A DNA stretch of 64,000 nucleotides, from positions 61,118,902 to 61,182,901 of the forward strand of contig NC_091134.1 of NCBI RefSeq assembly GCF_041381155.1, in the 5' to 3' direction. Shown here piece after piece: positions 19,773 through 64,000 of the stretch (position 1 is its first letter; every line of letters starts with the position of its first letter). The DNA is from Argopecten irradians. Its lineage: Eukaryota. The notes beneath the pieces are model-generated. The model worked only from the letters and a program-made list of their open reading frames with translations. It was not told the DNA's origin and did no database searches. The translations under genes and the position numbers were made by a program.

Positions 19773-19971
19773 AGTACCCATGTTATCTGCAATGACCCCG
19801 CTAAAGCAGATATTAGCTACAAATGTAAAATGGCCCAGAAGTATGGCATTCCAGTTGTATCTGTCAACTTCTTGTATGACTGTGTGGAGAAAGGGAGACT
19901 ACTCAGTACCGATGACTACCTGGTTATCGGCAAAACAAAGTCTCAGAAACTCAAATCCGGTAGAATTGCAG
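19773..19971 (+). CDS. PARP4: PARP4 exon 2 (rest of the BRCT domain), ending in phase 1: STHVICNDPAKADISYKCKMAQKYGIPVVSVNFLYDCVEKGRLLSTDDYLVIGKTKSQKLKSGRIA.
   Basis: Acceptor tcctatag|AGT and donor CAG|gtaaat. It aligns to human THIILDNADVLSQYQLNSIQKNHVHIANPDFIWKSIREKRLLDVKNY. The overlapping ORF-track frame (19756..) is a different, non-homologous frame. Confidence 0.8.
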
Positions 19972-20134
19972 GTAAATAATCATTAATCATTGTTTTATTT
20001 TGATATTGCAAATTCATGATAACGTACCTTTTAAAATTGTGTTAAAAGTGGTTGTGTAATTAGCAACATCCCCCCCTCCTGCTTGCGCAATTTTCCATGT
20101 TAAGGTAAACTTGATTTGGATGATTTTTTTTTAG

Positions 20135-20769: not shown

Positions 20770-23700
20770 ACTTGGAGACCTAGAGTCCTGAAATTTGACT
20801 TATAGCATGCTGGGATCAAGGGCTACCAATTTTGTTCGAATGAATGACCTCGACCTTCCTTCAAGGTCACAGGGGTCAAATAGGCTGAAATATCTTGTTA
20901 AGACTTCTGCTTCATAACCAAGAGGCCTAGAGACCTGATACTTGGCATGTAACATGTTGGGATGAAGGGCTACCAAGCTTGTTTCATTCAAGGTCACGGG
21001 GGTCAAATAGGCTAAAATCTTTAAACAACTTCTTCTTAATAACCAAGAGACCTAGGGACCTGATATCAGGCCTGTGACATGCTGGGATCAAGGGCTACCA
21101 AGTTTGTTCAAATGAATGACCTTGACCTTCATTCAAGGTCACAGGGGTCAAAAAGGCTAAAATCTTTAAACGACTTCTTCTTAATAACCAAGAGGCCTAG
21201 GGACCTGATATTAGGCCTGAGGCATGCTGGGATCAAGGGCTACCAAGTTTGTTCAAATGAATGACCTTGACCATCATTCAAGGTCACAGGGGTCAAAAAA
21301 GGCTAAAATCTTTTAAAGATTTCTTCTTAATAACCAAAGAGCCTAGGAACCTGATATTAGGCCTGTGACATACTTGGATCAAGGGCTACCAAGTTTGTTC
21401 AAATGAATGACCTTGACCCTCATTCAAGGTCACAGGGGTCAAAAAGGCTTAAATCTTTAAACGACTTCTTCTTAATAACCAAGAGGCCTAGGGACCTGAT
21501 ATCAGGCCTGTGACATGCTGGGATCAAGGGCTACCAAGTTTTGTTCAAATGAATGACCTTGACCTTCATTCAAGGTCACAGGGTAAAAAAGGCTAAAATC
21601 TTTAAAGGACTTCTTCTTTATAACCAAGAGGCCTAGGGACCTGATATTGGGCCTGAGGCATGCTGGGATCAAGGGCTAACAAGTTTGTTCAAATGAATGA
21701 CCTTGATCTTCATTCAAAGTCACAGGGGTCAAAAAGGCTTAAATCTTTAAACGACTTCTTCTTAATAACCAAGAGGCCTAGGGACCTGATATCAGGCCTG
21801 TGACATGCTGGGATCAAGGGCTACCAACTTTGTTCAAATGAATGACCTTGACCTTCATTCAAGGTCACAGGGGTAAAAAAGGCTAAAATCTCTAAACGAT
21901 TCTTCTTAATAACCAAGAGGCCTAGGGACCTGATATTGGGCCTGAGGCATGCTGGGATCAAGGGCTACCAAGTTTGTTCAAATGAATGACCTTGATCTTC
22001 ATTCAAAGTCACAGGGGTCAAAAAGGTTAAAATCTTTAAACGACTTCTTCTTAATAACCAAGAGGCCTAGGGACCTGATATTAGGCCTGTGACATGCTGG
22101 GATCAAGGGCTACCAAGTTTGTTCAAATGAATGACCTTGACCATCATTCAAGGTCACAGGGGTCAAAAAAGGCTAAAATCTTTTAAAGATTTCTTCTAAA
22201 TAACCAAAGAGCCTAGGAACCTGATATTAGGCCTGTGACATACTTGGATCAAGGGCTACCAAGTTTGTTCAAATGAATGACCTTGACCCTCATTCAAGGT
22301 CACAGGGGTCAAAAAGGCTTAAATCTTTAAACGACTTCTTCTTAATAACCAAGAGGCCTAGGGACCTGATATCAGGCCTGTGACATGCTGGGATCAAGGG
22401 CTACCAAGTTTTGTTCAAATGAATGACCTTGACCTTCATTCAAGGTCACAGGGTAAAAAAGGCTAAAATCTTTAAAGGACTTCTTCTTTATAACCAAGAG
22501 GCCTAGGGACCTGATATTGGGCCTGAGGCATGCTGGGATCAAGGGCTAACAGGGGTCAAAAAGGTTAAAATCTTTAAACGACTTCTTCTTAATAACCAAG
22601 AGGCCTAAAGACCTGATATTAGGCCTGTGACATGCTGGGATCAAGGGCTACCAAGTTTGTTCAAATGAATGACCTTGACCTTCATTCAAGGTCACAGGGG
22701 TCAAAAATGCTAAAATCGTTAAACAATTTCTTTTTAATAACCAAAGAGACTAGGAACCTGATATTAAGCCTTTGACATACTGGGATCAAGCTACAAAGTT
22801 TGTGCAAATGAATGACCTTGACCTTCATTCAAGGTCACAGGGGTCAAAAAGGCTAAAATCTTTAAATGACTTCTTCTTAATAACCAAGAGGCCTAGGGAC
22901 CTGATATCAGGCCTGTGACATGCTGGGATCAAGGGCTACCAAGTTTGTTCAAATGAATGACCTTGACCTTCATTCAAGGTCACAGGGGTCAAAAAGGCTA
23001 AAATCTTTAAACGATTTCTTCTTAATAACCAAAGAGCCTAGGAACCTGATATTAAGCCTGTGACATACTGGGATCAAGGGCTACAAAGTTTGTTCAAATG
23101 AATGACCTTGACCTTCATTCAAGGTCACAGGGGTCAAAAAGGCTAAAATCTTTAAATGACTTCTTCTTTATAACCAAGAAGCCTAGGGACCTGATATTGG
23201 GCATGTGACATGCTGGGATCAAGGGCTACCAAGTTTGTTCAAATGAATGACCTTGACCTTCATTCAAGGTCACAGGGGTCAAAAAGTCTAAAATCTTTAA
23301 ACGACTTCTTCTTAATAACCAAGAGGCCTAGGGACCTGATATTGGGCCTGAGGCATGCTGGGATAAAGGGCTACCAAGTTTGTTCAAATGAATGACCTTG
23401 ATCTGCATTCAAGGCTAAAATCTTTAAACAGTTTCTTCTTAATAACCAGACAGCCTAGGGACCTGGTATTGGGCCTGTGGCATGATGAAATCAAGGGCTA
23501 CCAAGTTTGTTCAAATGAATGACCTTGATCTTCATTCAAGGTTACAGGGATAAAAAAAGGCTTAAATCTTTAAACGACTTCTTCTTAATAACAAAACAGC
23601 CTAGGGACCTGATATTAAGCCTGTGACATACTGGGATCAAGGGCTACAAAGTTTGTTCAAATGAATGACCTTGACCTTCATTCAAGGTCACAGGGGTCAA

Positions 23701-25905
23701 AAAGGCTAAAATCTTTAAATGACTTCTTCTTTATAACCAAGAGGCCTAGGGTCCTGATATTGGGCATGTGACATGCTGGGATCAAGGGCTACCAAGTTTG
23801 TTCAAATGAATGACCTTGACCTTCATAAAGGACTTCTTCTTTATAACCAAGAGGCCTAGGGACCTGATATTGGGCCTGAGGCATGCTGGGATCAAGGGCT
23901 ACCAAGTTTGTTCAAATGAATGACCTTGATCTTCATTCAAAGTCACGGGGGTCAAAAAGGCTTAAATCTTTAAACGACTTCTTCTTAATAACCAAGAGGC
24001 CTAGGGACCTGATATCAGGCCTGTGACATGCTGGGATCAAGGGCTACCAACTTTGTTCAAATGAATGACCTTGACCTTCATTCAAGGTCACAGGGGTAAA
24101 AAAGGCTAAAATCTCTAAACGATTCTTCTTAATAACCAAGAGGCCTAGGGACCTGATATTGGGCCTGAGGCATGCTGGGATCAAGGGCTACCAAGTTTGT
24201 TCAAATGAATGACCTTGATCTTCATTCAAAGTCACAGGGGTCAAAAAGGTTAAAATCTTTAAACGACTTCTTCTTAATAACCAAGAGGCCTAAAGACCTG
24301 ATATTAGGCCTGTGACATGCTGGGATCAAGGGCTACCACGTTTGTTCAAATGAATGACCTTGACCTTCATTCAAGGTCACAGGGGTCAAAAAGGCTAAAA
24401 TCGTTAAACAATTTCTTTTTAATAACCAAAGAGACTAGGAACCTGATATTAAGCCTTTGACATACTGGGATCAAGCTACAAAGTTTGTGCAAATGAATGA
24501 CCTTGACCTTCATTCAAGGTCTCATGGGTCAAAAAGGCTAAAAGTCTTTAAATGACTTCTTCTTAATAACCAAGAGGCCTAGGGACCTGATATCAGGCCT
24601 GTGACATGCTGGGATCAAGGGCTACCAAGTTTGTTCAAATGAATGACCTTGACCTTCATTCAAGGTCACAGGGGTCAAAAAGGCTAAAATCTTTAAATGA
24701 CTTCTTCTTTATAACCAAGAGGCCTAGGGACCTGATATTGGGCATGTGACATGCTGGGATCAAGGGCTACCAAGTTTGTTCAAATGAATGACCTTGACCT
24801 TCATAATGACCTTGACCTTCATTCAAGGTCACAGGGGTCAAAAAGTCTAAAATCTTTAAACGACTTCTTCTTAATAACCAAGAGGCCTAGGGACCTGATA
24901 TTGGGCCTGAGGCATGCTGGGATCAAGGGCTACCAAGTTTGTTCAAATGAATGACCTTGATCTTCATTCAAGGTCACAGGGGTATAAAAGGCTAAAATCT
25001 TTAAACAGTTTCTTCTTAATAACCAGACAGCCTAGGGACCTGGTATTGGGCCTGTGGCATGATGAAATCAAGGGCTACCAAGTTTGTTCAAATGAATGAC
25101 CTTGATCTTCATTCAAGGTTACAGGGATAAAAAAAGGCTTAAATCTTTAAACGACTTCTTCTTAATAACAAAACAGCCTAGGGACTTGATATTGGGCCTG
25201 TGGCATGCTGGGATTAAGGGCTACCAAATTTGTTCAAATGAATGACCTTGACCATCATTCAAGGTCATAGGGGTCAAAAAGGCTAAAATCCTTTAAACGA
25301 CTTCTTCTTAATAATCAAGAGGCCTAGGGACCTGATATTGGGCTTGTGGCATGCTGGAATCAAGGGCTACCAAGTTTGTTCAAATGAATGACCTTGATCT
25401 TCATTCAAGGTCACAGGGATCAAAAAGGCTAGAATCTTTAAACGTCTTCTTCCTAATAACCAAACAGCCTAGGGACCTGGTATTGGGCATGTGGCATGCT
25501 GGGATCAAGGGCTACCACGTTTGTGCAAATGAATGACCTTGACCTTCATTCAAGGTTACAGGGGTCAAAAAGGCTAAAATCTTTAAAAGACTTCTTTATA
25601 CCAAAACAGTCTTGGGACCTGATATTGGGCCTATGGCATGCTGGGATCAAGGGCTACCAAGTTTGTTCGAATGAATGACCTTGACATCATTCAAGGTCAA
25701 AGGGGTAAGATAGGCTAAAATCTTTAAACAACTTCTTAATAACCAAGAGGTCTTGAGACCTGTTATTGGGCATGTGACATGTTGGGATGAAGCGCTACAA
25801 AGTTTGTTCAAATGAATGACCTTGACTTTCATTCAAGGTCACAGGGGTCAAATAGGCTAAAATCTTTAAATGACTCCTTTTTAATAACCAAGAGGCAAAG
25901 AGGCC
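20770..25905 (+). repeat. Satellite family B: ~147-bp monomer, ~35 copies, with local deletions (~22540, ~23400, ~23820) and a small duplication (~24790).
   Basis: Same monomer as 8255-9130. The ORFs MLGSRATKFVQMNDLDL... in the ORF track are repeat artefacts. Confidence 0.9.
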
Positions 25906-25947: not shown

Positions 25948-28019
25948 TTAGCTCACCTGGCCCGAAGGGCCGGTGAGCTTATGTCATGGCGCGGCGTCCG
26001 TCGTCCGTACGTTGTCCATCCGTCATCCGTCTGTCAACATTTCTTTAAATCGCTACTAGTCATAGAGTTCTGCATGGATTGTAACCAAATTTGGCCACAA
26101 GCATCCTTGGGGGAGGGGGAACAGAACTTGTATAAATTTTGGCTCTGACCCCCCGGGGGCAGGAGGGGAGGGGCCCAATAGGGGAAATAGAGGTAAATTC
26201 TTTAAATCGCTACTTGTCCTAGAGTTCTGCATGGATTGTAACCAAAATTAGCCATAAACATATCTTTGGGGGAAGGGGAACAGAACTTGTATAAATTTTG
26301 GCTCTGATCCCCCAGGGGCAGGAGGGAGGGGGCCCAATAGGGGAAATAAAGGTAAATCCTTTAAATCGCTACTGGTCATAGAGTACTGAATGGAATGTAA
26401 CCAAATTTGGCCACAAACATCCTTGGGGGAAGGGGAACAGAACTTGTATAAATTTTGGCTCTGGCCCCCCGGAGGCTGGAGGGATGGGGCCCAATAGGGG
26501 AAATAGAGGTAAATCCTTTAAATCGCTACTAGTCATAGAGTTCTGCATGGAATGTAACCAAATTTGGCCAGAAATATCCTTTGGAGATTAGAACTGAGTT
26601 TGTATAAATTTTGGCACTGGTCCCGGGGCGCAGGAGGGGCGGGGCCCAATAGGGGAATTATAGGTAAATCCTATAAATCGGTACTTGTCCTATAGTTCTG
26701 CATGGATTATCACCAAATTTGTCCACAAACATCCTTGGGGGTAGGAGAACAGAACTTGTATAAATTTTGGCTCTGACCCTCCGGCGACAGGAGGGGGAGG
26801 AGCCCAATAGAGGAAATAGTGGTAAATCCTTTAAATCGCTACTTGTCCTAGACTTCTGCATGGATTGTAACCAAATTTGGCAACAAACATCCTTGGGGGA
26901 AGGGGAACAGAACTTGTATAAATTTTGGCTCTGACCCCCCGGGGGCAGGAGGGGCGGGGCCCAATAGGGGAAATAGAGGTAAATTCTTTAAATCGCTACT
27001 TGTCCTAGAGTTCTGCATGGATTGTAACCAAAATTAGCCACAAACATCCTTGGGGGAGGGGGAACAGAACTTGTATAAATTTTGGCTCTGACTCCCCAGG
27101 CAGGAGGGGCGGGGCCCAATAGGGGAAATAGAGGTAAATTGTTTAAATTGCTACTTGTCCTAAAGTTCTGCATGGATTGTAACCAAAATTAGCCATAAAC
27201 ATATCCTTGGGGGATGGGGAACAGAAGTTGTATAAATTTTGGCTCTGATCCCCCAGGGGCAGGAGGGGCGGGGCCCAATAGGGGAAATAAAGGTAAATCC
27301 TTTAAATCGCTACTGGCCATAGAGTTCTGAATGGAATGTAACCAAATTTGGCCACAAACATCCTTGGGGGAAGGGGAACAGAACTTGTGTAAATTTTGGC
27401 TCTGGCCCCCCGGAGGCTGGAGGGGTGGGGCCCAGTAGGGGAAATAGAGGTAAATCCTTTAAATCGCTACTAGTCATAGAGTTCTGCATGGAATGTAACC
27501 AAATTTGGCCAGAAATATCCTTGGGAGATTAGAACTGAGTTTGTATAAATTTTGGCACTGGTCCGGGGGCGCAGGAGGGGCGGGGCCCAATAGGGGAATT
27601 ATAGGTAAATCCTATAAATCGGTACTTGTCCTAGAGTTCTGCATGGATTGTAACCAAATTTGGCCATAAACATCCTTGGGGGTAGGAGAACAAAACTTGT
27701 ATAAATTTTGGCTCTGACCCTCCGGGGACAGGAGGGGGTGGAGCCCAATAGAGGAAATAGTGGTAAATTCTATAAATCGCTACTTGTCCTAGAGTTTTGC
27801 TTGGATTGTGACCAAATTTGGCCATAAACATCCTTGTGGGAAGGAGAACAGAACTTTGGCTCTGACCCCCTGGGGACAGGAGGGGTGGGGCGCAATAGGG
27901 GACTTAGATGATAATATTAAAATTCCTTCAGAAAAGAAACAATGAACCTGTATTCAGAACATTACTTGGCATTACAAACCAGGTGAGCGATACAGGCCCT
28001 CTTGGCCTCTTGTTGTTAA
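25948..28019 (+). mobile_element. Helentron-like element copy 4: hairpin head, (GTCC)n spacer, ~12 monomers of satellite family A and the conserved tail ending GGCCCTCTTGGCCTCTTGTT.
   Basis: The head at 25948-26040 is near-identical to 2344-2428. Array is 26041-27905. Tail 27906-28019 is near-identical to 3205-3310. Confidence 0.55.
26041..27905 (+). repeat. Satellite family A: 157-bp monomer, ~12 copies.
   Basis: Same monomer as 2429-3210. The minus-strand PAPRG-rich ORFs are artefacts. Confidence 0.9.
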
Positions 28020-35211: not shown

Positions 35212-35560
35212 GTAAGATTTTCATTTAAGATGTACTGTTCATTTTAGGGGTTCATTGTGTTTTTGACAAATTAGAAAATCCATTTGGAGAAATATTGAAG
35301 GCTGGTTATTTTAGGGGTAGATATCTCAAATATAATTTTTTATCAGCTAGTGTAATAACTTGAGTCTTGCTTGTAAACAGTCATCAAGGCATTAAAGTTT
35401 GTAGAGGTCCTGAGTTCAAACCCAGCTGCTACATATATGTTGTCATGTCATCTTTTGAATTAGAAGATAAGGTAAGAGAAAAGAGAAGAGAAGTTATGAA
35501 TTGAAAATTAAAGTTCCCCATTGATATCATTGATCCATATAATTTTTAACTGATTTATAG

Positions 35561-35697
35561 ATTTGAAAGATGTGAAAGATGTCTTGGACCCTATGTCAAA
35601 GGTCAAACCTGGACTGGTGGCTGATGGGAAGGAGGTCAATCCAGTAGAACTAGAGAAACTGGATGTGTTTGCTAAACTAATGGACTTGGTGGCTGAG
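35561..35697 (+). CDS. PARP4: PARP4 exon 13: (N)LKDVKDVLDPMSKVKPGLVADGKEVNPVELEKLDVFAKLMDLVAE. The last 24 nt and the donor seed the downstream 51-bp satellite.
   Basis: Acceptor ttatag|AT and donor GAG|gtatgt. LDVFAKLMDLVAE followed by VKVFQVY (exon 14) aligns to human LEDVHIKGRIIDTVAQ followed by VIVFQTY. Any later satellite copy offers an identical in-frame donor, so the true donor could be a later copy. Confidence 0.65.
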
Positions 35698-36968
35698 GTA
35701 TGTAGTAAACTGAATGTCTTGACTAAACTAATGGACTTGGTGGCCGAGGTATGTAGTAAACTGGATGTGTGTTGACTAAACTAATGGACTTGGTGGCCGA
35801 GGTATGTAGTAAACTGAATGTGTTGACTAAACTAATGGACTTGGTGGCCGAGGTATGTAGTAAACTGGATGTGTTGACTAACTAATGGACTTGGTGGCCG
35901 AGGTATGTAGTTAACTGGATGTGTTGACTAAACTAATGGACTTGGTGGCTGAGGTATGTAGTAAACTGGATGTGTTGACTAAACTAATGGACTTGGTGGC
36001 TGAGGTATGTAGTTAACTGAATGTGTTGACTAAACTAATGGACTTGGTGGCTGAGGTATGTAGTAAACTTTGTTTTGGCTAAACTAATGGACTTGGTGGC
36101 CGAGGTATGTAGTAAACTGAATGTGTTGACTAAACTAATGGACTTGGTGGCCGAGGTATGTAGTAAACTGAATGTGTTGACTAAACTAATGGACTTGGTG
36201 GCTGAGGTATGTAGTAAATTGGATGTGTTGACTAAACTAATGGACTTGGTGGCCGAGGTATGTAGTAAACTGAATGTGTTGGCTAAACTAATGGACTTGG
36301 TGGCCGAGGTATGTAGTAAACTGAATGTGTTGACTAAGCTAATGGACTTGGTGGCTGAGGTATGTAGTAAACTGGATGTGTTGACTAAACTAATGGACTT
36401 GGTGGCCGAGGTATGTAGTAAACTGAATGTGTTGGCTAAACTAATGGACTTGGTGGCTGAGGTATGTAGTAAACTTTGTTTTGGCTAAACTAATGGACTT
36501 TGTGGCTGAGGTATGTAGTAAACTGATTGTTTTGGCTAAACTAATGGACTTAGTGGCAGAGGTACGTAGTAAACTTTGTTTTGGCTAAACTAATGGACTT
36601 GGTGGCTGAGGTATGTAGTAAACTTTGTTTTGGCTAAACTAATGGACTTGGTGGCCGAGGTATGTAGTAAACTTTGTTTTGGCTAAACTAATGGACTTGG
36701 TGGCTGAGGTATGTAGTAAACTGTATGTGTTGGCTAAACTAATGGACTTGGTGGCTGAGGTATGTAGTAAACTGTATGTGTTGGCTAAACTAATGGACTT
36801 GGTGGCAGAGGTATGTAGTAAACTGGATGTGTTGACTAAACTAATGGACTTGGTAGCTGAGGTATGTAGTAAACTGAATGTGTTGACTAAACTAATGGAC
36901 TTGGTGGCTGAGGTATGTAGTAAACTGGATGTGTTGACTAAACTAATGGACTTGGTGGACGAGGTATG
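35674..36968 (+). repeat. 51-bp satellite, ~25 copies (aaactaatggacttggtggcYgaggtatgtagtaaactgRatgtgttgRct). It is derived from the 3' end of PARP4 exon 13 plus its GTATGT donor. The unit is 17 codons and fully open in the exon frame.
   Basis: The first copy is exon 13 itself. The ORF-track proteins are KLMDLVAEVCSKLNVLT reiterated. Each unit carries a GAG|gtatgt donor-like site. Confidence 0.9.
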
Positions 36969-36970
36969 TA

Positions 36971-39842
36971 CAGTACCTGAACCGTTTAACGTTCCCAGCC
37001 TAACGCAAACGCAACGCAAAAAAATAGTTCGTTAGCTAACGCTAACGATTGCTAACGCTAACGATTAACGATTAACGATAAACGATTAACGCAATACCGG
37101 CTAACGATTAACGATTAACGCAAAACGCAAAACGATCGGCTATGATTAACCGGAAATACCGTTGTTATAATCACGGACACGGCTTGACGGTAAATGAATT
37201 ACGGATCTTGATGTTTTGAAATACAAACGAAAGTACAAGAAAAACTGGAGTATGTTCGGGATTAAAGTTTCTGTATATCATATAAACATTTGCCTATGAA
37301 AACTATATGGACACGATGAAGTCAAAGACGACAGTACTCGATGCAAAGTTTCCATGTACAAAAATGAATGACATGTGCAACTGTATGTGTGGAGAAAGAA
37401 TGGTATTATTCTAAAGTGTCATATTTACCCGGTATTTTAAGAAATAACAAATTGTTACAGCATCTCTTTAGTGATAATCACACAATGAAGTCAAACACGA
37501 CTGTACTCGATACGAAGTTTCCACTTCACACGTACGTTTACAAATTACTTGTACAACCGTATGTATTAAGAGAGAATTGTGTTATTCTAAGTGTCATATT
37601 TGTCCGACATTTTAAGAAATAACAAACAAATTGTTACAACAACACTTTATTGATAATATTACCGTCACAATGTCATAACTTTAGTGAAGCGATCAGGCGT
37701 ATACTGGTACATGTACTTTAAATGGAAACATTTTCACACATTTAAAATGCTGTAAATCAAATTTCCATCTATATGTTTGATTTATATTATCGATGTGTCA
37801 TAACTCAACAATGGTAATAATTAACATCTTATAGTGTTTCTCGCATCAATCACAAGTTTCAGGGTTTTTTCCAGATTGTCGAAAGGCTCTTCCGCTTATC
37901 ATGGAAAATTGTATTCTCGGAATATTTGTTTCATAACGGATTACACGCTGTATATAATTAGGGTGTGCATTCATAAAAGCTCATTGCTTACAATTGACTA
38001 GGCATCGATTTTAGGGTCGCACATGTACATTTACAAATACACGTACATACGCCATAGCTAGTGTAATAAAGATTGAACATTTGAATTCGTGTTTCGCCAT
38101 TTGCAGTTCTCTCATTTTATAGTTCATGCATATAATACAGATATAAAGAACGGAAATATTTCACTTCCAGTTATCTATATTCAAATTAAGTCAAATTATG
38201 CATAATCATTGATGACAACAACGATGAAGATAGTGATGCACATGCATACATGTATGTACACTGAAGATAACTGTAAAATTGCATTGCGACAATTTTCTAC
38301 GTATATTTGTAACTGGCGTAAGAAATATAGTTATTTGATCACATTTCACACCAAGCAACTCTTCAATTTACAGTTTAAACAAATTAAATATTCATACAAT
38401 GTATAAGTGTAAGCTAATTCATTCCAACGTAATCTATAGGAAAGCATATTGCCCACATCAAAACTTTGAAATACGACAGTATATATATGTCCGTGAAATG
38501 TACTGTCACAGTGTATATTTTTGTACGGGGCACAGGTAAGTTGGGTATAAAGTTAATCTCCCTCCCAAGAAGGGAAAGTGTTAATTACAGGTGAACTCCG
38601 CCCGTGGCCAGCTACAGGGGGTCGACACAAGGTAACACCAGTCGTGACCTATATACCTGTACAGGTAAAATACCCGTGCGCGTCACGCTGGGAATTGAAA
38701 AGATTCCAGGTACAAATAACAACGAACACATGTGAGAAGGTGCCCGTGACTGTCCAGTTTTTATTGATATGAGCTTAAAGGTATACCCGTGCCTGATTTG
38801 ACACGCGTACAGTACGTGTGAAGGCTTTAATACAATGTAACGTACCCCTGCACAGTTCGAATTCTCTACACGTGTTAACATGTAGTTGTAGGTATACTCG
38901 TACATTACAAACATTTACATCATTTTATTCCATTTTCATATATATATGTAGATACAAGTACTAATTAATTGCGTTTAAAAATATGTACATGTAAATGCCA
39001 AATCTCACCTATTCCCCGTGTTCAAACTCGTCATGATTTTTAAATTTCACGAATTTATTTACAAATCTCCCGAGTCTTTTTTAGCGTTCTTCATACATTG
39101 ATGAAATTTAACATAACAAGAAGAATATGATGCAGCGTGTCTGTAATAACATTTTTATATTTTTTATTATCTGTTTTAGCTATATTCTTGTGTAATCTTT
39201 CAGCTGTCGTGGATTCTTTCTAAAATAATGCTTTTGACATTAATATTCTGTAAGACAGTTTCGTTAATATTTGAATTGCTTTCGCAGAAATCATAGTAAC
39301 TACAAACATATATATGATATATGTTTCTGATAATAATAATAAGAAGTTTTGAAATGTCATTTAAATACGAGTATTTCAGAACGTTTTCACGGATACATAT
39401 GTAGGAGCGTACGTCATGTATATGCGATCTTGTTACTGTACATATTTTTATTTCAACCACATCTAACAAACATATATACATCCAAAAGAGATATAAAATG
39501 CAATACAATACACTTTATTCATATTATTTTTTTTTCATAGATGTTATGATAATCGCTTCTTCACGAAGCGGTAAACGTAATATCATATCCGGATCGTCAA
39601 AGCATCTCACCGGCATTTGGTTCTATTTTTAGTGGCTAACGTTAGCGGAAGTGGGTCCTGCTAACGATTAACGCAAACGATTTCAAACGCAAACGATTGT
39701 AAACGCAACTAACGATTAACGATTGCTAACGCAAACGATAACGATTAACGATAAACGATTGCTAACGCTAACGATTGCTAACGGAAATAACGCAAACGCA
39801 AACGAAACGCAAATTTGGGAACGTTAAACGGTTCAGGTACTG
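36971..39842. mobile_element. Tc1/mariner-like non-autonomous DNA transposon (2872 bp) inserted into the 51-bp satellite. It has 27-bp perfect TIRs CAGTACCTGAACCGTTTAACGTTCCCA, a TA target site duplication and subterminal (TAACG)n-like direct repeats at both ends.
   Basis: The satellite unit gaggtatgTAgtaaactg is split as gaggtatgTA[element]TAgtaaactg. The TA is at 36969-36970 and 39843-39844. No intact transposase ORF. An internal ~150-bp x2 direct repeat lies at 37316-37640. Confidence 0.7.
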
Positions 39843-40370
39843 TAGTAAACTGTATGTGTTGGCTAAACTAATGGACTTGGTGGCCGAGGTATGTAGTAAA
39901 CTGTATGTGTTGGCTAAACTAATGGACTTGGTGGAAGAGGTATGTAGTAAACTGAATGTGTTGACTAAACTAATGGACTTGGTGGCTGAGGTATGTAGTA
40001 AACTTTGTTTTGGCTAAACTAATGGACTTGGTGGCAGAGGTATGTAGTAAACTGGATGTGTTGACTAAACTAATGGACTTGGTGGCTGAGGTATGTAGTA
40101 AACTTTGTTTTGGCTAAACTAATGGACTTAGTGGCCGAGGTATGTAGTAAACTTTGTTTTGGCTAAACTAATGGACTTAGTGGCCGAGGTATGTAGTAAA
40201 CTTTGTTTTGGCTAAACTAATGGACTTGGTGGCTGAGGTATGTAGTAAACTTTGTTTTGGCTAAACTAATGGACTTGGTGTCTGAGGTATGTAGTAGGCT
40301 AAAATGTATTTGTTGACTAAACTAAGGACTTGATGGCCGAGGTACATAGTAAACTGGATGTGTTGGCAGA
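39843..40370 (+). repeat. Continuation of the 51-bp exon-derived satellite (~10 copies, degenerating at the 3' edge).
   Basis: Same unit and phase as 35674-36968, resuming exactly at the interrupted position. Confidence 0.9.
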
Positions 40371-40718
40371 AATCAATTGTCATGTTTTATTCACAATCAT
40401 TGGAATTTTACTTTTCATTGACATTAACTTTATATTGTCATTTACTGTAAATTTAACTTTTGATTTAATTAAGTGTGTCTATTTGCATATTTTTAAGTTT
40501 TTAGATTTTGAATATTTCTCAAATGTAATATATTAATCATGATAAAAGTACTTGTAAGTATAACATTGATGTAAAATAAAAATAGGTGATGATTTTGAAA
40601 GTTTAGTCTACTCGACATGAAGAAACTTTTGTTTTAATTAGGTTTAGATTACCATTATTTTTTAATGTTATCTATAATTGCTGAATTTCATTATTACTGT
40701 AAAAAACTTTCTTTTCAG

Positions 40719-40943
40719 GTGAAGGTATTTCAAGTTTACAAAAACAACAGTGCTGAAATGTTAGAAGGGAAGTATGTGTTCCCACTTGACGAGATGGCGG
40801 CTGTGTGTGGATTTGAGGCCTACATCAATGACAAGCATGTGGTTGGAGAAGTGAAGGAGAAAGAGACGGCGCACAAGGAGTACAAAAAGGCCATCAGTGA
40901 AGGTCATGGTGCCTACCTCATGGACCAGGACGAGGAGTCTCCG
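40719..40943 (+). CDS. PARP4: PARP4 exon 14 (VIT domain): VKVFQVYKNNSAEMLEGKYVFPLDEMAAVCGFEAYINDKHVVGEVKEKETAHKEYKKAISEGHGAYLMDQDEESP.
   Basis: Acceptor cttttcag|GTG and donor CCG|gtaggt. It is near-identical to human VIVFQTYTNKSHVPIEAKYIFPLDDKAAVCGFEAFINGKHIVGEIKEKEEAQQEYLEAVTQGHGAYLMSQDAP. Confidence 0.9.
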
Positions 40944-41019: not shown

Positions 41020-42050
41020 AGTTTTTACATCAGCGTTATATCTGGTTGTAATCTGTATTTTACATCAGTGTTGTATCTGGTTGTAATCTGTATTTTACAT
41101 CAGCATTATATCTGGATGTAATCTGTATTTTACATCAGCGTTGTATCTGGTTGTAATCTTTATTTTACATCAGCATTATATCTGGATGTAATCTGTATTT
41201 TACATCAGCATTATATCTGGATAATGTAATTTGTATTTTACATCAGCGTTGTATCTGGTTGTAATCTGTATTTTACATCAGCATTATATCTGGATGTAAT
41301 CTGTATTTTACATCACTATTATATCTGGTTGTAATCTGTATTTTACATCAGCGTTGTATCTGGTTTTAATCTGTATTTTACATCAGCATTATATCTGGAT
41401 GTAATCTGTATTTTACATCAGCGTTGTATCTGGTTGTAATCTGTATTTTACATCAGCGTTGTATCTGGTTGTAATCTGTATTTTACATCAGCGTTGTATC
41501 TGGTTGTAATCTGTATTTTACATCAGCGTTGTACCTGGTTGTAATCTGTATTTTACATCAGCGTTGTATCTGGTTGTAATCTGTATTTTACATCACCGTT
41601 ATATATCTGGTTGTAATCTGTATTTTACATCAGCGTTGTATCTGGTTGTAATCTGTATTTTACATCACTGTTATATCTGGTTGTAATCTGTATTTTACAT
41701 CAGTGTTGTATCTGGTTGTAATCTGTATTTTACATCAGCGTTGTATCTGGTTGTAATCTGTATTTTACATCAGCGTTATATCTGGTTGTAATCTATATTT
41801 TACATCACTGTTATATCTGGTTATATCTGGTTGTAATCTGTATTTTACATCAGCGTTGTATCTGGTTGTAATCTGTATTTTACATCAGCGTTGTATCTGG
41901 TTGTAATCTGTATTTTACATCAGCGTTATATCTGGTTGTAATCTGTATTTTACATCAGCGTTGTATCTGGTTGTAATCTGTATTTTACATCACCGTTGTA
42001 TCTGGTTGTAATCTGTATTTTACATTAGCATTGTATCTGATTATAATCAG
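41020..42050 (+). repeat. 35-bp satellite (gtaatctgtattttacatcagcgttgtatctggtt), ~29 copies. It starts ~80 bp after the PARP4 exon 14 donor.
   Basis: Direct tandem repeat with R/Y point variants. Confidence 0.9.
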
Positions 42051-42665
42051 TATAACTCAAAACCTTATAATGATACTACACCTAATTTGATGTTTTAGTT
42101 TCTTTGAATTATCTTCAGTTTTAATGTAAACTTTACCACCAAAACTTCTTTCTCAATATTGCTTTTCAAGTCCAAAGTTTAAAGGTCAAGGTCACTGTTA
42201 CTAAAATAGAAAATCATGTTCTGTTTATTAACTGATTGGCAAGTTATTATATTTTTTTGTGGAATTCTTGTCCTTATACTATCTGTCTATACTGATGAAT
42301 GGTTCAATAGTTTCACTCTGAATTGAATTAATAATTTTTAAGTGCAACTAGCGCAGACACAGAAGTATTTTAGACATGAAAATCACTGTGGTATAATAAA
42401 TAATGGAATTTATCATATGCACATACATACAGTATCCATATTTGCAATATTCTTATTGATATTTTAGCGTGAGAATTCATGGATATATGTATTCAGCATC
42501 ATTTTTCAATAGCTAGCTTTTAACACTTTGTGGTGAAGCTACCTTGAGTTAGGCCATCTTTAGATGAGTGATTGCTCTATTGTGTATCATGGCCTTTGTA
42601 CATGACAGATAGGGAATCTCATCCGATTAATTTGTTTAACCTGAACTTTGTATGTTTGTGAACAG

Positions 42666-44002: not shown

Positions 44003-44913
44003 TAATATTTGGGAAATAGAGGTAAATCCTATAAATCCCTACTTGTCCTTGAGTTCTGTATGGATTGTAACCAAATTTGGCCACAAACATCCATGGGGGG
44101 AAAGGGAACAGAACTTGAATAAATTTTGGCTCTGATCCCCCGGGGGCAGGAGGGGCAGGACCCAATAGGGGAAATAGAGGTAAATCCTTTAAATTGCTAC
44201 TTGTCAAAGAATTCTACATGGATTGTAACTGAATTTGGCCAGAAACATCCTTGAGGAAAGGGGAATAGAGTTTGTATAAATTTTGGCTCTGACCCCACAG
44301 GGGGCATGAGGGGCAGGGCCCAATTGTGGACATAGAGGTAAATCCTTTAAATTGCTACTTGTCATATAGTTCTACATGGATTGTAACCGAATTTGGCCAG
44401 AAACATCTTTGAGGAAAGGGGAATAGAGTTTGTATAAGTTTTGGCTCTGAACCACCAGGGGGCATGAGGGGCAGGGCCCAATTGGGGACATAGAGGTAAA
44501 TCCTTTAGATTATTACTTGTCATAGAGTTCTGCATGGATTGTAACCAAATTTGGCCAGAAGCATCCTTTGGGTAAGGGGGTTAGAGCTTGTATAAATTTT
44601 GGCTCTGACCCCGGGGGCAGGAAGGGCGGGGCCCAATAGAGGAAATAGAAGTTGGTTCTTTAAATCGCAACTAGTCATAGAGTTCTGCATGGATTGTTAC
44701 CAAATTTGACCAGAAACATCTTTGGGGGAAGGGGATTAGAGTTTGTATAAATTTTGGCTCTGATCCCTTTGGGGGAAGGATGTGTGGGGCTTGATAGGGA
44801 AAATAGAGGTAAATATTTAAATTCCTTTAGAAAAGAAACAATGAATCTGTATTAAGAACATAACTTGGCATTACAAACCAGATGAGTGATACAGGCCCTC
44901 TGGGTCTCTTGTT
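44003..44913 (+). mobile_element. Helentron-like element copy 5 (5'-truncated, no head): ~5 monomers of satellite family A plus the conserved tail ...GGCCCTCTGGGTCTCTTGTT, in PARP4 intron 16.
   Basis: Monomers and tail are homologous to 2429-3310 and 26041-28019. Confidence 0.5.
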
Positions 44914-45687: not shown

Positions 45688-48600
45688 AGATGTATGACAT
45701 ACTGACTGACCAGTATATAGATGTTAGATGACCTTGTCAAGTATGACACACTGACTGGTCAGTATATAGATGTTATGTGACCTTGTAAAGTATGACATAC
45801 TGACTGACCAGTATATAGATGTTAGATGACCTTGTAAAGTATGACATACTGACTGGCCAGTATATAGATGTTAGATGACCTTGTCAAGTATGACATACTG
45901 ACTGACCAGTATATAGATGTTAGATGACCTTGTCAAGTATGACATACTGACTGGCCAGTATATAGATGTTATGTGACCTTGTCAAGTATGACATACTGAC
46001 TGGTCAGTATATAGATGTTAGATGACCTTGTAAAGTATGACATACTGACTGGCCAGTATATAGATGTTAGATGACCTTGTCAAGTATGACATACTGACTG
46101 GCCAGTATATAGATGTTATGTGACCTTGTCAAGTATGACATACTGACTGACCAGTATATAGATGTTATGTGACCTTGTCAAGTATGACATACTGACTGGC
46201 CAGTATATAGATGTTATGTGACCTTGTCAAGTATGACATACTGACTGGCCAGTATATAGATGTTATGTGACCTTGTCAAGTATGACATACTGACTGGCCA
46301 GTATATAGATGTTATGTGACCTTGTCAAGTATGACATACTGACTGGCCAGTATATAGATGTTATGTGACCTTGTCAAGTATGACATACTGACTGGCCAGT
46401 ATATAGATGTTATGTGACCTTGTCAAGTATGACATACTGACTGGCCAGTATATAGATGTTATGTGACCTTGTCAAGTATGACATACTGACTGGCCAGTAT
46501 ATAGATGTTATGTGACCTTGTCAAGTATGACATACTGACTGGCCAGTATATAGATGTTATGTGACCTTGTCAAGTATTACATACTGACTGGCCAGTATAT
46601 AGATGTTATGTGACCTTGTCAAGTATGACATACTGACTGGCCAGTATATAGATGTTATGTGACCTTGTCAAGTATGACATACTGACTGGCCAGTATATAG
46701 ATGTTATGTGACCTTGTCAAGTATGACATACTGACTGGCCAGTATATAGATGTTATGTGACCTTGTCAAGTATGACATACTGACTGGCCAGTATATAGAT
46801 GTTATGTGACCTTGTCAAGTATGACATACTGACTGGCCAGTATATAGATGTTATGTGACCTTGTCATGTATGACATACTGACTGGCCAGTATATAGATGT
46901 TATGTGACCTTGTCAAGTATGACATACTGACTGGCCAGTATATAGATGTTATGTGACCTTGTCAAGTATGACATACTGACTGGCCAGTATATAGATGTTA
47001 TGTGACCTTGTCAAGTATGACATACTGACTGGCCAGTATATAGATGTTATGTGACCTTGTCATGTATGACATACTGACTGGCCAGTATATAGATGTTATG
47101 TGACCTTGTCAAGTATGACATACTGACTGGCCAGTATATAGATGTTATGTGACCTTGTCAAGTATGACATACTGACTGGCCAGTATATAGATGTTATGTG
47201 ACCTTGTCATGTATGACATACTGACTGGCCAGTATATAGATGTTATGTGACCTTGTCATGTATGACATACTGACTGGCCAGTATATAGATGTTATGTGAC
47301 CTTGTCAAGTATGACATACTGACTGGCCAGTATATAGATGTTATGTGACCTTGTCATGTATGACATACTGACTGGCCAGTATATAGATGTTATGTGACCT
47401 TGTCAAGTATGACATACTGACTGGCCAGTATATAGATGTTATGTGACCTTGTCAAGTATGACATACTGACTGGCCAGTATATAGATGTTATGTGACCTTG
47501 TCAAGTATTACATACTGACTGGCCAGTATATAGATGTTATGTGACCTTGTCAAGTATGACATACTGACTGGCCAGTATATAGATGTTATGTGACCTTGTC
47601 AAGTATGACATACTGACTGGCCAGTATATAGATGTTATGTGACCTTGTCATGTATGACATACTGACTGGCCAGTATATAGATGTTATGTGACCTTGTCAA
47701 GTATGACATACTGACTGGCCAGTATATAGATGTTATGTGACCTTGTCAAGTATGACATACTGACTGGCCAGTATATAGATGTTATGTGACCTTGTCAAGT
47801 ATGACATACTGACTGGCCAGTATATAGATGTTATGTGACCTTGTCAAGTATGACATACTGACTGGCCAGTATATAGATGTTATGTGACCTTGTCAAGTAT
47901 GACATACTGACTGGCCAGTATATAGATGTTATGTGACCTTGTCAAGTATGACATACTGACTGGCCAGTATATAGATGTTATGTGACCTTGTCATGTATGA
48001 CATACTGACTGGCCAGTATATAGATGTTATGTGACCTTGTCATGTATGACACACTGACTGGCCAGTATATAGATGTTATGTGACCTTGTCATGTATGACA
48101 TACTGACTGGCCAGTATATAGATGTTATGTGACCTTGTCATGTATGACATACTGACTGGCCAGTATATAGATGTTATGTGACCTTGTCAAGTATGACATA
48201 CTGACTGGCCAGTATATAGATGTTATGTGACCTTGTCATGTATGACACACTGACTGGCCAGTATATAGATGTTATGTGACCTTGTCAAGTATGACATACT
48301 GACTGGCCAGTATATAGATGTTATGTGACCTTGTCATGTATGACATACTGACTGGCCAGTATATAGATGTTATGTGACCTTGTCAAGTATTACATACTGA
48401 CTGGCCAGTATATAGATGTTATGTGACCTTGTCAAGTATGACATACTGACTGGCCAGTATATAGATGTTATGTGACCTTGTCAAGTATGACATACTGACT
48501 GGCCAGTATATAGATGTTATGTGACCTTGTCAAGTATGACATACTGACTGGCCAGTATATAGATGTTATGTGACCTTGTCAAGTATGACATACTGACTGA

Positions 48601-51600
48601 CCAGTATATAGATGTTATGTGACCTTGTCATGTATGACATACTGACTGGCCAGTATATAGATGTTATGTGACCTTGTCATGTATGACATACTGACTGGCC
48701 AGTATATAGATGTTATGTGACCTTGTCATGTATTACATACTGACTGGCCAGTATATAGATGTTATGTGACCTTGTCATGTATGATATACTGACTTGCCAG
48801 TATATAGATGTTATGTGACCTTGTAAAGTATGACATACTGACTGGCCAGTATATATAGATGTTATGTGACCTTGTCAAGTATGACATACTGACTGGCCAG
48901 TATATAGATGTTATGTGACCTTGTCAAGTATGACATACTGACTGGCCAGTATATAGATGTTATGTGACCTTGTCAAGTATGACATACTGACTGGCCAGTA
49001 TATAGATGTTATGTGACCTTGTCATGTATGACATACTGACTGGCCAGTATATAGATGTTATGTGACCTTGTCAAGTATGACATACTGACTGGCCAGTATA
49101 TAGATGTTATGTGACCTTGTCAAGTATGACATACTGACTGGCCAGTATATAGATGTTATGTGACCTTGTCAAGTATGACATACTGACTGGCCAGTATATA
49201 GATGTTATGTGACCTTGTCAAGTATGACATACTGACTGGCCAGTATATAGATGTTATGTGACCTTGTCATGTATGACATACTGACTGGCCAGTATATAGA
49301 TGTTATGTGACCTTGTCATGTATGACATACTGACTGGCCAGTATATAGATGTTATGTGACCTTGTCAAGTATGACATACTGACTGGCCAGTATATAGATG
49401 TTATGTGACCTTGTCAAGTATGACATACTGACTGGCCAGTATATAGATGTTATGTGACCTTGTCATGTATGACATACTGACTGGCCAGTATATAGATGTT
49501 ATGTGACCTTGTCAAGTATGACATACTGACTGGCCAGTATATAGATGTTATGTGACCTTGTCAAGTATGACATACTGACTGGCCAGTATATAGATGTTAT
49601 GTGACCTTGTCAATGTATGACATACTGACTGGCCAGTATATAGATGTTATGTGACCTTGTCATGTATGACATACTGACTTGCCAGTATATAGATGTTATG
49701 TGACCTTGTAAAGTATGACATACTGACTTGCCAGTATATAGATGTTATGTGACCTTGTCATGTATGACATACTGACTGGCCAGTATATAGATGTTATGTG
49801 ACCTTGTCATGTATGACATACTGACTGGCCAGTATATAGATGTTATGTGACCTTGTCAAGTATGACATACTGACTGGCCAGTATATAGATGTTATGTGAC
49901 CTTGTCAAGTATGATATACTGACTGGCCAGTATATAGATGTTATGTGACCTTGTCAAGTATGACATACTGACTGGCCAGTATATAGATGTTATGTGACCT
50001 TGTCATGTATGACACACTGACTGGCCAGTATATAGATGTTATGTGACCTTGTCATGTATGACATACTGACTGGCCAGTATATAGATGTTATGTGACCTTG
50101 TCAAGTATGACATACTGACTGGTCAGTATATAGATGTTATGTGACCTTGTCATGTATGACATACTGACTGGTCAGTATATAGATGTTATGTGACCTTGTC
50201 ATGTATGACATACTGACTGGTCAGTATATAGATGTTATGTGATCCTTGTCATGTATGACACACTGACTGGTCAGTATATAGATGTTATGTGATCCTTGTC
50301 ATGTATGACATACTGACTGGTCAGTATATAGATGTTATGTGACCTTGTCATGTATGACATACTGACTGGTCAGTATATAGATGTTATGTGACCTTGTCAT
50401 GTATGACATACTGACTGGTCAGTATATAGATGTTATGTGACCTTGTCATGTATGACATACTGACTGGTCAGTATATAGATGTTATGTGACCTTGTCATGT
50501 ATGACATACTGACTGGTCAGTATATAGATGTTATGTGACCTTGTCATGTATGACACACTGACTGGTCAGTATATAGATGTTATGTGACCTTGTCATGTAT
50601 GACATACTGACTGGTCAGTATATAGATGTTATGTGACCTTGTCAAGTATGACATACTGACTGGTCCAGTATATAGATGTTATGTGATCCTTGTCATGTAT
50701 GACATACTGACTGGCCAGTATATAGATGTTATGTGACCTTGTCAAGTATGACATACTGACTGGCCAGTATATAGATGTTATGTGACCTTGTCAAGTATGA
50801 CATACTGACTGGCCAGTATATAGATGTTATGTGACCTTGTCATGTATGACATACTGACTGGCCAGTATATAGATGTTATGTGACCTTGTCATGTATGACA
50901 TACTGACTGGCCAGTATATAGATGTTATGTGACCTTGTCAAGTATGACATACTGACTGGCCAGTATATAGATGTTATGTGACCTTGTCATGTATGACATA
51001 CTGACTGGCCAGTATATAGATGTTATGTGACCTTGTCAAGTATGACATACTGACTGACCAGTATATAGATGTTATGTGACCTTGTCAAGTATTACATACT
51101 GACTGGCCAGTATATAGATGTTATGTGATCCTTGTCATGTATGACACACTGACTGGCCAGTATATAGATGTTATGTGACCTTGTCATGTATGACATACTG
51201 ACTGGCCAGTATATAGATGTTATGTGACCTTGTCATGTATGACATACTGACTGGTCAGTATATAGATGTTATGTGACCTTGTCATGTATGATATACTGAC
51301 TTGCCAGTATATAGATGTTATGTGACCTTGTCAAGTATGACATACTGACTGGTCAGTATATAGATGTTATGTGACCTTGTCATGTATGACATACTGACTG
51401 ACCAGTATATAGATGTTATGTGACCTTGTCAAGTATGACATACTGACTGGCCAGTATATAGATGTATGTGACCTTGTCAAGTATGACATACTGACTGGCC
51501 AGTATATAGATGTTATGTGACCTTGTCAAGTATGACATACTGACTGGCCAGTATATAGATGTTATGTGACCTTGTCAAGTATGACATACTGACTGGCCAG

Positions 51601-54600
51601 TATATAGATGTTACCTGTGTCCTTGTCATGTTATGTGACTTGTCAAGTATACATACTGACTGGCCAGTATATAGATGTTATGTGACCTTGTCAAGTATGA
51701 CATACTGACTGGCCAGTATATAGATGTTATGTGACCTTGTCAAGTATGACATACTGACTGGCCAGTATATAGATGTTATGTGACCTTGTCAAGTATGACA
51801 TACTGACTGGCCAGTATATAGATGTTATGTGACCTTGTCATGTATGACATACTGACTGGCCAGTATATAGATGTTATGTGACCTTGTCAAGTATGACATA
51901 CTGACTGGCCAGTATATAGATGTTATGTGACCTTGTCATGTATGACATACTGACTGGTCAGTATATAGATGTTATGTGACCTTGTCAAGTATGACATACT
52001 GACTGGCCAGTATATAGATGTTATGTGACCTTGTCAAGTATGACATACTGACTGGCCAGTATATAGATGTTATGTGATCCTTGTCATGTATGACACACTG
52101 ACTGGTCAGTATATAGATGTTATGTGACCTTGTCAAGTATGACATACTGACTGGTCAGTATATAGATGTTATGTGACCTTGTCATGTATGACACACTGAC
52201 TGGCCAGTATATAGATGTTATGTGACCTTGTCATGTATGATATACTGACTTGCCAGTATATAGATGTTATGTGACCTTGTCAAGTATGACATACTGACTG
52301 GCCAGTATATAGATGTTATGTGACCTTGTCATGTATGACATACTGACTGGCCAGTATATATAGATGTTATGTGACCTTGTCAAGTATGACATACTGACTG
52401 GCCAGTATATAGATGTTATGTGACCTTGTCATGTATGACATACTGACTGGCCAGTATATAGATGTTATGTGACCTTGTCAAGTATGACATACTGACTGGC
52501 CAGTATATAGATGTTATGTGACCTTGTCATGTATGACATACTGACTGGCCAGTATATAGATGTTATGTGACCTTGTCAAGTATGACATACTGACTGGCCA
52601 GTATATAGATGTTATGTGACCTTGTCATGTATGACATACTGACTGGCCAGTATATAGATGTTATGTGACCTTGTCATGTATGACATACTGACTGGTCAGT
52701 ATATAGATGTTATGTGACCTTGTCAAGTATGACATACTGACTGGCCAGTATATAGATGTTATGTGACCTTGTCAAGTATGACATACTGACTGGCCAGTAT
52801 ATAGATGTTATGTGACCTTGTCAAGTATGACATACTGACTGGCCAGTATATAGATGTTATGTGACCTTGTCAGTATGACATACTGACTGGCCAGTATATA
52901 GATGTTATGTGACCTTGTCAATGTATGACATACTGACTGGCCAGTATATAGATGTTATGTGACCTTGTCAAGTATGACATACTGACTGGCCAGTATATAG
53001 ATGTTATGTGACCTTGTCAAGTATGACATACTGACTGGCCAGTATATAGATGTTATGTGACCTTGTCAGTATGACATACTGACTGGCCAGTATATAGATG
53101 TTATGTGACCTTGTCAAGTATGACATACTGACTGGCCAGTATATAGATGTTATGTGACCTTGTCAAGTATGACATACTGACTGGCCAGTATATAGATGTT
53201 ATGTGACCTTGTCAAGTATGACATACTGACTGGCCAGTATATAGATGTTATGTGACCTTGTCAAGTATGACATACTGACTGGCCAGTATATAGATGTTAT
53301 GTGACCTTGTCAAGTATGACATACTGACTGGCCAGTATATAGATGTTATGTGACCTTGTCAAGTATACATACTGACTGGCCAGTATATAGATGTTATGTG
53401 ACCTTGTCAGTATGACAACTGACTGCCAGTATATAGATGTTATGTGACCTTGTCAAGTATGACATACTGACTGACCAGTATATAGATGTTATGTGACCTT
53501 GTCAAGTATTACATACTGACTGGCCAGTATATAGATGTTATGTGATCCTTGTCATGTATGACACACTGACTGGCCAGAATATAGATGTTATGTGACCTTG
53601 TCATGTATGACACACTGACTGGCCAGTATATAGATGTTATGTGATCCTTGTCATGTATGACACACTGACTGGCCAGTATATAGATGTTATGTGACCTTGT
53701 CATGTATGACACACTGACTGGCCAGTATATAGATGTTATGTGACCTTGTCATGTATGATATACTGACTTGCCAGTATATAGATGTTATGTGACCTTGTCA
53801 TGTATGACATACTGACTGGCCAGTATATAGATGTTATGTGACCTTGTCAAGTATGACATACTGACTGGTCAGTATATAGATGTTATGTGACCTTGTCAAG
53901 TATTACATACTGACTGGCCAGTATATAGATGTTATGTGATCCTTGTCATGTATGACATACTGACTGGTCAGTATATAGATGTTATGTGACCTTGTCAAGT
54001 ATGACATACTGACTGGCCAGTATATAGATGTTATGTGACCTTGTCATGTATGATATACTGACTTGCCAGTATATAGATGTTATGTGACCTTGTCAAGTAT
54101 GACATACTGACTGGTCAGTATATAGATGTTATGTGACCTTGTCATGTATGACATACTGACTGGTCAGTATATAGATGTTATGTGATCCTTGTCATGTATG
54201 ACACACTGACTGGTCAGTATATAGATGTTATGTGACCTTGTCATGTATGACATACTGACTGGTCAGTATATAGATGTTATGTGACCTTGTCATGTATGAC
54301 ATACTGACTGGTCAGTATATAGATGTTATGTGATCCTTGTCATGTATGACACACTGACTGGTCAGTATATAGATGTTATGTGACCTTGTCAAGTATTACA
54401 TACTGACTGGTCAGTATATAGATGTTATGTGACCTTGTCAAGTATGACATACTGACTGGCCAGTATATAGATGTTATGTGACCTTGTCAAGTATGACATA
54501 CTGACTGGCCAGTATATAGATGTTATGTGTGACCTTGTCAAGTATGACATACTGACTGGCCAGTATATAGATGTTATGTGACCTTGTCAAGTATGACATA

Positions 54601-63600: not shown

Positions 63601-64000
63601 TGTGACCTTGTCAAGTATGACACAGCTGACACTGACCCAGTATATAGATGTTATGTGACCTTGTAAAGTATAACACACTGAACTGGCCAGTATATAGATG
63701 TTATGTGACCTTGTCATGTAGGACATACTGTGTTGGTCAGGTATATATATAGTTTTATGTGACCTAGTCATGTATGACACACACTGACCTGGTCAGTTTA
63801 TAGAATGTTTATGTGACCTTGGTAAAAGTATGACACACTGGACTGACCAGTATATGAATGTTATGTGACCTTGTCAAGTGATGGACATAACTGAACTGGC
63901 CAGTTATATAGATGTTTATGTGACCCTGTGTCCACGTATGATCACAATGACTGGCCACTATATAGATGTTAAGTGACCTTGTCAGTGTATGACACACTGA
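45688..64000 (+). repeat. 49-bp satellite (cagtatatagatgttatgtgaccttgtcaagtatgacatactgactggc), ~370 copies across at least 18.3 kb, filling the PARP4 intron after exon 18 and running off the window. It is highly homogeneous to ~57.2 kb and increasingly degenerate from there to the end.
   Basis: Period 49 was verified at several points. Variant classes (caag/catg, ggcc/ggtc, gtgatcc) are locally clustered. Beyond ~58.6 kb ccccactcccc-type derived units dominate. The MSYMTRSHNIYIL ORFs are artefacts. Confidence 0.95.

Follow-up and report, generated by a model that had tools for sequence, protein, structure and literature searches.

How can the junction between a coding exon and its intron be copied some dozens of times within a gene that goes on encoding an orthologue-like protein? 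The question is raised by a 64-kb stretch of Argopecten irradians DNA (NCBI RefSeq assembly GCF_041381155.1, contig NC_091134.1, positions 61,118,902 to 61,182,901 of the forward strand; hereafter the window), where a head-to-tail array of 35 units, each ending in a splice donor-like site, begins inside a coding exon of the gene for the vault poly(ADP-ribose) polymerase PARP4 and continues into the following intron. The reading that we favour, with a probability of roughly 75%, is that of a neutral, lineage-restricted intronic minisatellite, seeded from the exon-intron junction and tolerated since splicing from the first donor removes it. Coordinates below are window positions, and the exons, array units and intron parts all lie on the plus strand.

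The domains of the gene and its best matches identify it as a PARP4 orthologue, as the first-pass annotation of this DNA had proposed. An upstream segment (19773-19976) matches the Pfam BRCT profile with 27.3 bits, against a cut-off of 21.3, and the peptide obtained by joining the neighbouring exons through the first donor matches Pfam PARP (48.8 bits) and then VIT (122.8 bits). Among the peptide matches with a source name, the best come from a bird, Crassostrea gigas (63%), fishes and Solemya velum (54%), under the name PARP4 or poly(ADP-ribose) polymerase 4. The exon that carries the start of the array, previously labelled exon 13, occupies 35561-35697 (137 nucleotides, nt) and is delimited by its translation, (N)LKDVKDVLDPMSKVKPGLVADGKEVNPVELEKLDVFAKLMDLVAE, its acceptor context, its homology to orthologues and the start of the VIT match; it ends on a complete codon (phase 0). 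The next exon (40719-40943; VKVFQVYKNNSAEMLEGKYVFPLDEMAAVCGFEAY...EESP), placed by homology and Pfam, encodes the core of the VIT domain and ends at the donor TCTCCG|GTAGGT. Splicing from 35697|35698 to 40719 yields the orthologue-like junction ...LVAE|VKVFQ.... The match to Pfam VIT begins at query residue 143, LEKLDVFAKLMDLVAE, which is within the exon tail, and the repeated part of the exon thus codes for the N-terminal margin of the VIT domain, not for an inter-domain linker. The first-pass annotation had placed the extra repeats between the catalytic and VIT domains.

We read the array region directly over 35300-40900, called repeats with Tandem Repeats Finder (TRF) and delimited the units by splitting the sequence at each GGTAYRTA. 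TRF reports two blocks. The first, at 35656-36970, has 26 copies of period 51 with 93% matches and a score of 2129; the second, at 39835-40367, has 10.5 copies and a periodicity of 49/51/100 bp. Donor-like GAG|GTAYRT sites number 36, with 35 units between them, all within 35656-40367; the remainder of the window has no such site. A junction-spanning core of 40 nt has 33 matches with three mismatches or fewer, where shuffled sequences give an expectation of 0, and in the window all of them are on the plus strand and in this intron only; an exact-pattern scan of metagenome contigs for the junction core gave 0 matches. The number of copies (about 35) and the place given by the first-pass annotation are thus borne out, but the array is not continuous, as a 2,874-bp insertion interrupts unit 26, which spans 2,925 bp owing to the foreign element inside it. 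The proximal part (35698-36968) consists of units 1-25 and 7 nt from the start of unit 26; every unit ends in GAG followed by a GTATGT-type donor. The distal part (39845-40367) holds what remains of unit 26, then units 27-35, and closes with a partial unit (GTACATAGTAAACTGGATGTGTTGGC); the 49-bp variant is abundant there and the last units are degenerate. The unique 3′ part of the intron follows at 40368-40718, where the sequence contains a polypyrimidine tract and the acceptor (ctttcttttcag).

The composition of the unit shows where the array came from. Each unit corresponds to the 42 nt at the 3′ end of the exon joined to the 9 nt that open the intron (GTATGTAGT), and not, as originally described, to 24 nt of exon and 27 nt of intron; the "19 nt of intron" in that description are a copy of exon positions -42 to -25. 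The TRF start, 35656, lies 42 nt inside the exon, and the 42 nt from there to the exon end (35656-35697; AAACTGGATGTGTTTGCTAAACTAATGGACTTGGTGGCTGAG), which are 34-41/42 identical to each of the unit bodies, are the founder copy. Directly upstream of 35656, the 9 nt GAACTAGAG have no match to the intron-derived nonamer, and the periodicity ends sharply at that point. The authentic 5′ splice site (35698-35706) is the sole intron-derived part of the unit; it is supported by the orthologues, by an identical donor in Solemya and by agreement with CAG|GUAAGU at 7 of 9 positions. The claim that every copy offers GAG|GTATGT is nearly right, the hexamer being GTATGT at 34 of the 36 sites, but one site reads GTACGT and one GTACAT.

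Unit length and sequence vary along the array. Of the 35 units, 22 measure 51 bp and ten 49 bp, and the remaining three have lengths of 50, 53 and 55 bp, which leaves 13/35 with a length that is not a multiple of three. Among the 35 units there are 28 distinct sequences, arranged as an aperiodic mosaic, and the 51-bp units have a mean pairwise identity of 94.7%. Both the 49-bp and the GTATGTGTTGGC variants occur on either side of the insertion. At its distal end the array stops with a 26-nt partial unit at 40342-40367, the periodic span being n x 51 + 17 nt and ending with GTACATAGT plus AAACTGGATGTGTTGGC. With a period of 49-55 bp (mode 51) and 35 units head to tail at one locus, the array falls within the usual definition of a minisatellite (many head-to-tail copies of a 10-100 bp unit at a single locus). 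A strict satellite would form arrays of tens of kb and/or occupy many loci, and this array covers about 1.8 kb at one locus in the window; "satellite", the term used at first, is too strong.

Whether the exon or the repeat came first can be judged from orthologous genes, a comparison that the first-pass annotation had itself suggested. We aligned 16 PARP4 proteins, among them sequences from Crassostrea, Solemya, fishes, a bird and an ascidian. Without any gap, the exon tail lines up with residues that are conserved in bivalve, fish, bird and ascidian PARP4, and the junction reads PVTLLEAHIRAKLIDLAGE|VVVLQEY in C. gigas, SVSLSQVHIAAHLVDLAAE|VTVFQTY in Solemya and PVPLEGVHIKARIIDFVAQ|VVMFQNY in the bird; no orthologue in this alignment has an insertion at the exon junction. 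At the DNA level, the Solemya velum locus (L001) has an exon ending in GCTGAG|GTATGT, a donor identical to that of the locus studied here, followed by a 2,209-nt phase-0 intron at the same codon boundary and by an exon that starts GTGACAGTTTTT. The Solemya intron contains no array and no exon-tail k-mer of at least 12 nt, only small unrelated repeats. In the bird locus (L004), too, this codon boundary is interrupted by a phase-0 intron (GCACAG|GTAGAG ... TTTCAG|GTAGTA). In two long eukaryotic contigs from ENA metagenome assemblies (L002, 10166-10516; L003, 9971-10459) PARP4 is compact and there is no intron at the exon 13/14 position, which, given its presence in Solemya and the bird, suggests lineage-specific intron loss.

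Since the exon tail is conserved and the intron is common to Solemya and the bird, with no array in Solemya, the exon and intron came first, and the comparison supports an array that is derived, lineage-restricted and seeded from the junction, the exon, the intron and even the GTATGT donor being older than it. This agrees with the original proposal that coding sequence at a PARP4 exon junction seeded the array, and the repeat is not older than the exon. The converse, capture of the exon tail from a pre-existing satellite, was considered and rejected, given that orthologues conserve those same residues. We also noted a weak likeness between AGTAAACTGTAT of the unit and the start of the Solemya intron, AGTTACTGTAT, which we attribute to chance, as exon positions -42 to -25 match this part of the unit at 16-17 of 18 positions in the same register, a far stronger resemblance.

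The sequence of events would then be a simple one. A 51-bp segment across the exon-intron boundary, made of 42 nt of exon and the first 9 nt of intron, may have been duplicated in tandem, and replication slippage or unequal exchange could have expanded it to about 35 units; the mosaic of unit types, with variants on both sides of the insertion, would fit repeated local amplifications. Every duplicate is on the 3′ side of the original donor, so that splicing from donor 1 (35697|35698 to 40719) would remove the array and the later transposon together, within the ancient phase-0 intron, and leave the mature PARP4 mRNA unchanged. The array would be tolerated for this reason, and the repeated donors would be a by-product of the duplication. 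Its neutrality is, in our reading, the probable outcome.

The first-pass annotation saw in the array a substrate for variable-length isoforms or alleles, in which use of donor n in place of donor 1 would insert n-1 perfect 17-residue repeats beside the VIT domain without breaking the frame. It is true that the consensus 51-bp unit has no stop when read in the exon frame (VCSKL[ND]VLTKLMDLVAE), that the donors are near-identical and near consensus, and that donor 2 (35748) adds 51 nt in frame, or 17 residues. In the hypothetical product with these 17 residues the VIT profile shifts its anchor to the duplicated copy (profile positions 3-111, 121.5 bits versus 123.3), and one extra unit, which would act as an insertion of 17 residues immediately before the VIT domain, may be structurally tolerated. 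The description of the unit as exactly 17 codons free of stops applies to the consensus, but only 22 of the 35 units are 51 bp long and unit 2 (53 bp) carries a 2-bp (TG) insertion that creates a stop. Read through from 35698, the exon translates to VCSKLNVLTKLMDLVAEVCSKLDVC and then terminates at codon 25, a TGA at 35773-35775, the first in-frame stop. Donors 3-36 are all downstream of this TGA, whatever their cumulative length modulo three, and the claim of n-1 perfect repeats is true for n = 2 only, donor 2 being the sole alternative that keeps the frame; beyond it, the array offers no in-frame, stop-free alternative donor for protein isoforms. This allele would thus give at most one alternative protein (with 17 additional residues), and the sequence itself already refutes the model for n of at least 3; transcripts spliced from donors 3-36 would have a premature stop and are expected to be degraded or non-productive. 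The 13 units that break the frame and the transposon that interrupts the array also speak against the isoform model. Because ten units are 49 bp long and others 50, 53 and 55 bp, the unit lengths give no sign of selection for coding, and the copies appear to have drifted without coding constraint. Finally, the peptides of the two open frames of the repeat (plus and minus strand) were compared with 5.8 billion protein clusters, and of 8,000 candidates with short words in common none matched at E <=0.01; other assemblies thus give no sign of the array or of isoform models containing the repeat. That the array is a source of protein variants is very improbable.

The repeated donors could instead act on splicing itself. 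As a regulatory decoy, the 35 extra strong 5′ splice sites would compete with the authentic donor or load U1 small nuclear ribonucleoprotein, so that premature-stop transcripts lower PARP4 output according to copy number, or premature cleavage and polyadenylation is suppressed in the enlarged, transposon-bearing intron. Several features of the sites speak for such a role: 35 of the 36 agree with CAG|GUAAGU at 7 of 9 positions, each carries an equivalent 42 nt of exon context, and their predicted U1 duplexes (-8.1 to -8.5 kcal/mol) are stronger than those of two upstream donors of the same gene (-4.5 and -4.6). According to Hodson et al. 2012 (PMC3413131), the intron-proximal one of identical strong 5′ splice sites is preferred in vitro, which predicts that downstream donors are not inert. 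The near-invariance of GTATGT across units might look like selection on the donor, but variation is equally low in the adjacent exon-derived core, and recent expansion accounts for both with no need of selection. Solemya moreover lacks the array, and in a window of which half is tandem repeat no special function is needed to account for one more array. We consider the decoy unlikely. Its central prediction, that in vivo some PARP4 pre-mRNA, in a proportion that depends on copy number, is processed through downstream donors into premature-stop transcripts, seems to us rather doubtful, if marginally less so; if it were true, the array would be a natural, polymorphic dial on PARP4 expression and a ready-made test of whether 5′ splice site choice follows exon definition or a first-come rule as opposed to the intron-proximal rule.

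Several of these points weigh against the neutral minisatellite that we prefer. The repeated donors are as near consensus as the other donors of the gene, which makes some downstream use plausible, in which case the array may not be fully neutral, and the intron-proximal rule, carried over from the in vitro constructs, would favour the last donors and with them non-productive mRNA. The case for predominant use of donor 1 is drawn from protein homology: donor 1 is needed for an orthologue-like protein because the orthologues have no insertion at the junction. Also, the periodic span of n x 51 + 17 nt means that a single simple duplication is insufficient unless sequence was later lost from the distal edge or the founding event was more complex. 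On the other side, exon definition of the 137-nt exon, together with co-transcriptional commitment, would favour donor 1. The copy number in the assembly could also be wrong, and one may go further and suppose that the array, or its length, arose by mis-assembly of a much shorter duplication, tandem arrays being a classic site of assembly expansion and collapse. This is the least probable of the explanations considered. The 28 distinct units in an aperiodic mosaic, the transposon placed precisely in one unit with a clean TA duplication and the degenerate edges are marks of a real, aged array and not of read stacking, even though the copy number could be off by a few units. An array that straddles an exon end is in any case not very surprising, because this genome forms arrays readily: tandem repeats with a TRF score of at least 100 cover about 51% of the window.

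Parts of this arrangement are known from other systems. Intronic variable number tandem repeats (VNTRs) near splice sites are exemplified by the ABCA7 intronic VNTR that Hamanaka et al. 2023 (PMC10078293) cite; they share with the present array units of tens of bp placed head to tail near a donor, a mosaic of variants and a potential influence on splicing. Here, however, the unit derives from the exon-intron junction, and each copy has a full-strength, authentic-type donor with 42 nt of exon context. Splicing can mask a tandem duplication that carries a splice signal, a principle on which a model of intron gain by duplication is based (Hellsten et al. 2011, PMC3265369). As in this Hellsten/Rogers model, the duplicates lie in an intron that is removed, between the first donor and the acceptor at 40719, but no new intron has arisen; an ancient intron, present in Solemya and the bird, has been lengthened at its 5′ end, and by about 35 units, not by a single copy. 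Duplicated-donor constructs such as C174C (Hodson et al. 2012) have in common with the array identical strong donors in tandem and a single acceptor, whereas here the locus is natural, with 36 sites about 51 nt apart, a 5-kb intron and a 137-nt internal exon, and all but the first two choices would be non-productive. Our literature searches for arrays spanning an exon-intron boundary found no direct precedent, which is not proof of absence.

The locus illustrates how a tandem array can start from coding sequence together with a splice signal, and how the gene may be shielded from it by splicing, with the advantage that the founder copy is still in the exon and the orthologues fix the direction of origin. 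It gives no mechanism for variable-length PARP4 proteins. For annotation, spurious alternative donors and bogus isoform models containing the repeat are to be expected here. The locus could also serve as a natural minigene for 5′ splice site competition, although its practical value is modest.

The insertion in unit 26 is of 2,874 bp and consists of a 2,872-bp element (36971-39842, annotated without strand) and a duplicated TA. An inverted-repeat search showed that the element ends in perfect terminal inverted repeats of 27 nt (CAGTACCTGAACCGTTTAACGTTCCCA), at 36971-36997 and 39816-39842; they are 100% complementary, begin with CAGT and are each flanked by TA (left copy 36969-36970, right copy 39843-39844). 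When the 2,874 bp are taken out, what is left is exactly a consensus 51-bp unit with one TA, which shows TA to be the target-site duplication; for this comparison the remaining 34 units provide the empty-site controls. TRF also detected short subterminal AACGATT/AACGCAA repeats at about 37000-37130 and 39660-39805. The longest open reading frame (ORF) in the element is 102 residues, and no transposase was found in it, with no Pfam match at E <=0.1. The 27-nt terminal repeat has just its two copies in the window, where we found no related copy of the element and no autonomous partner. The TA duplication and terminal inverted repeats are those of Tc1/mariner elements and the ORF for a DD(E/D) transposase is lacking, features that this insert shares with non-autonomous Tc1/mariner-type elements, whose inverted repeats likewise begin with CAGT. 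We infer a non-autonomous DNA transposon of Tc1/mariner type, the superfamily being assigned by the TA duplication and the termini only.

Other tandem arrays are found in the same gene. In the intron after the next exon, a 35-bp array of about 29 copies (41023-42053) begins about 80 nt past the exon-14 donor (40943|GTAGGT). A 49-bp array (GTATGACATACTGACTGGCCAGTATATAGATGTTATGTGACCTTGTCAA) of more than 18 kb, at 45692-64000, lies in the PARP4 intron that follows the exon ending at 45638; it begins about 54 nt past the donor and runs off the end of the window, which thus closes inside this 18-kb intronic array and leaves the PARP4 exons further downstream, where a C-terminal vWA domain and an MVP-interaction domain would be encoded, beyond it. 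We considered both as candidates for further exon-seeded arrays and rejected them, as neither contains exon sequence. Arrays with 145-bp and 157-bp units recur at 2428-3211, 20983-25896, 26043-27856 and 44011-44823. Upstream of PARP4, two stop-free plus-strand segments, 1906-2088 and 3759-3911 (…IRQKNQALNYRRMSARIDAVAARVQTAVTMKQV… and …DRFEQQFENLDVQSQVMEDTMN…), are by appearance candidate exons of a CHMP1/Snf7-type gene.

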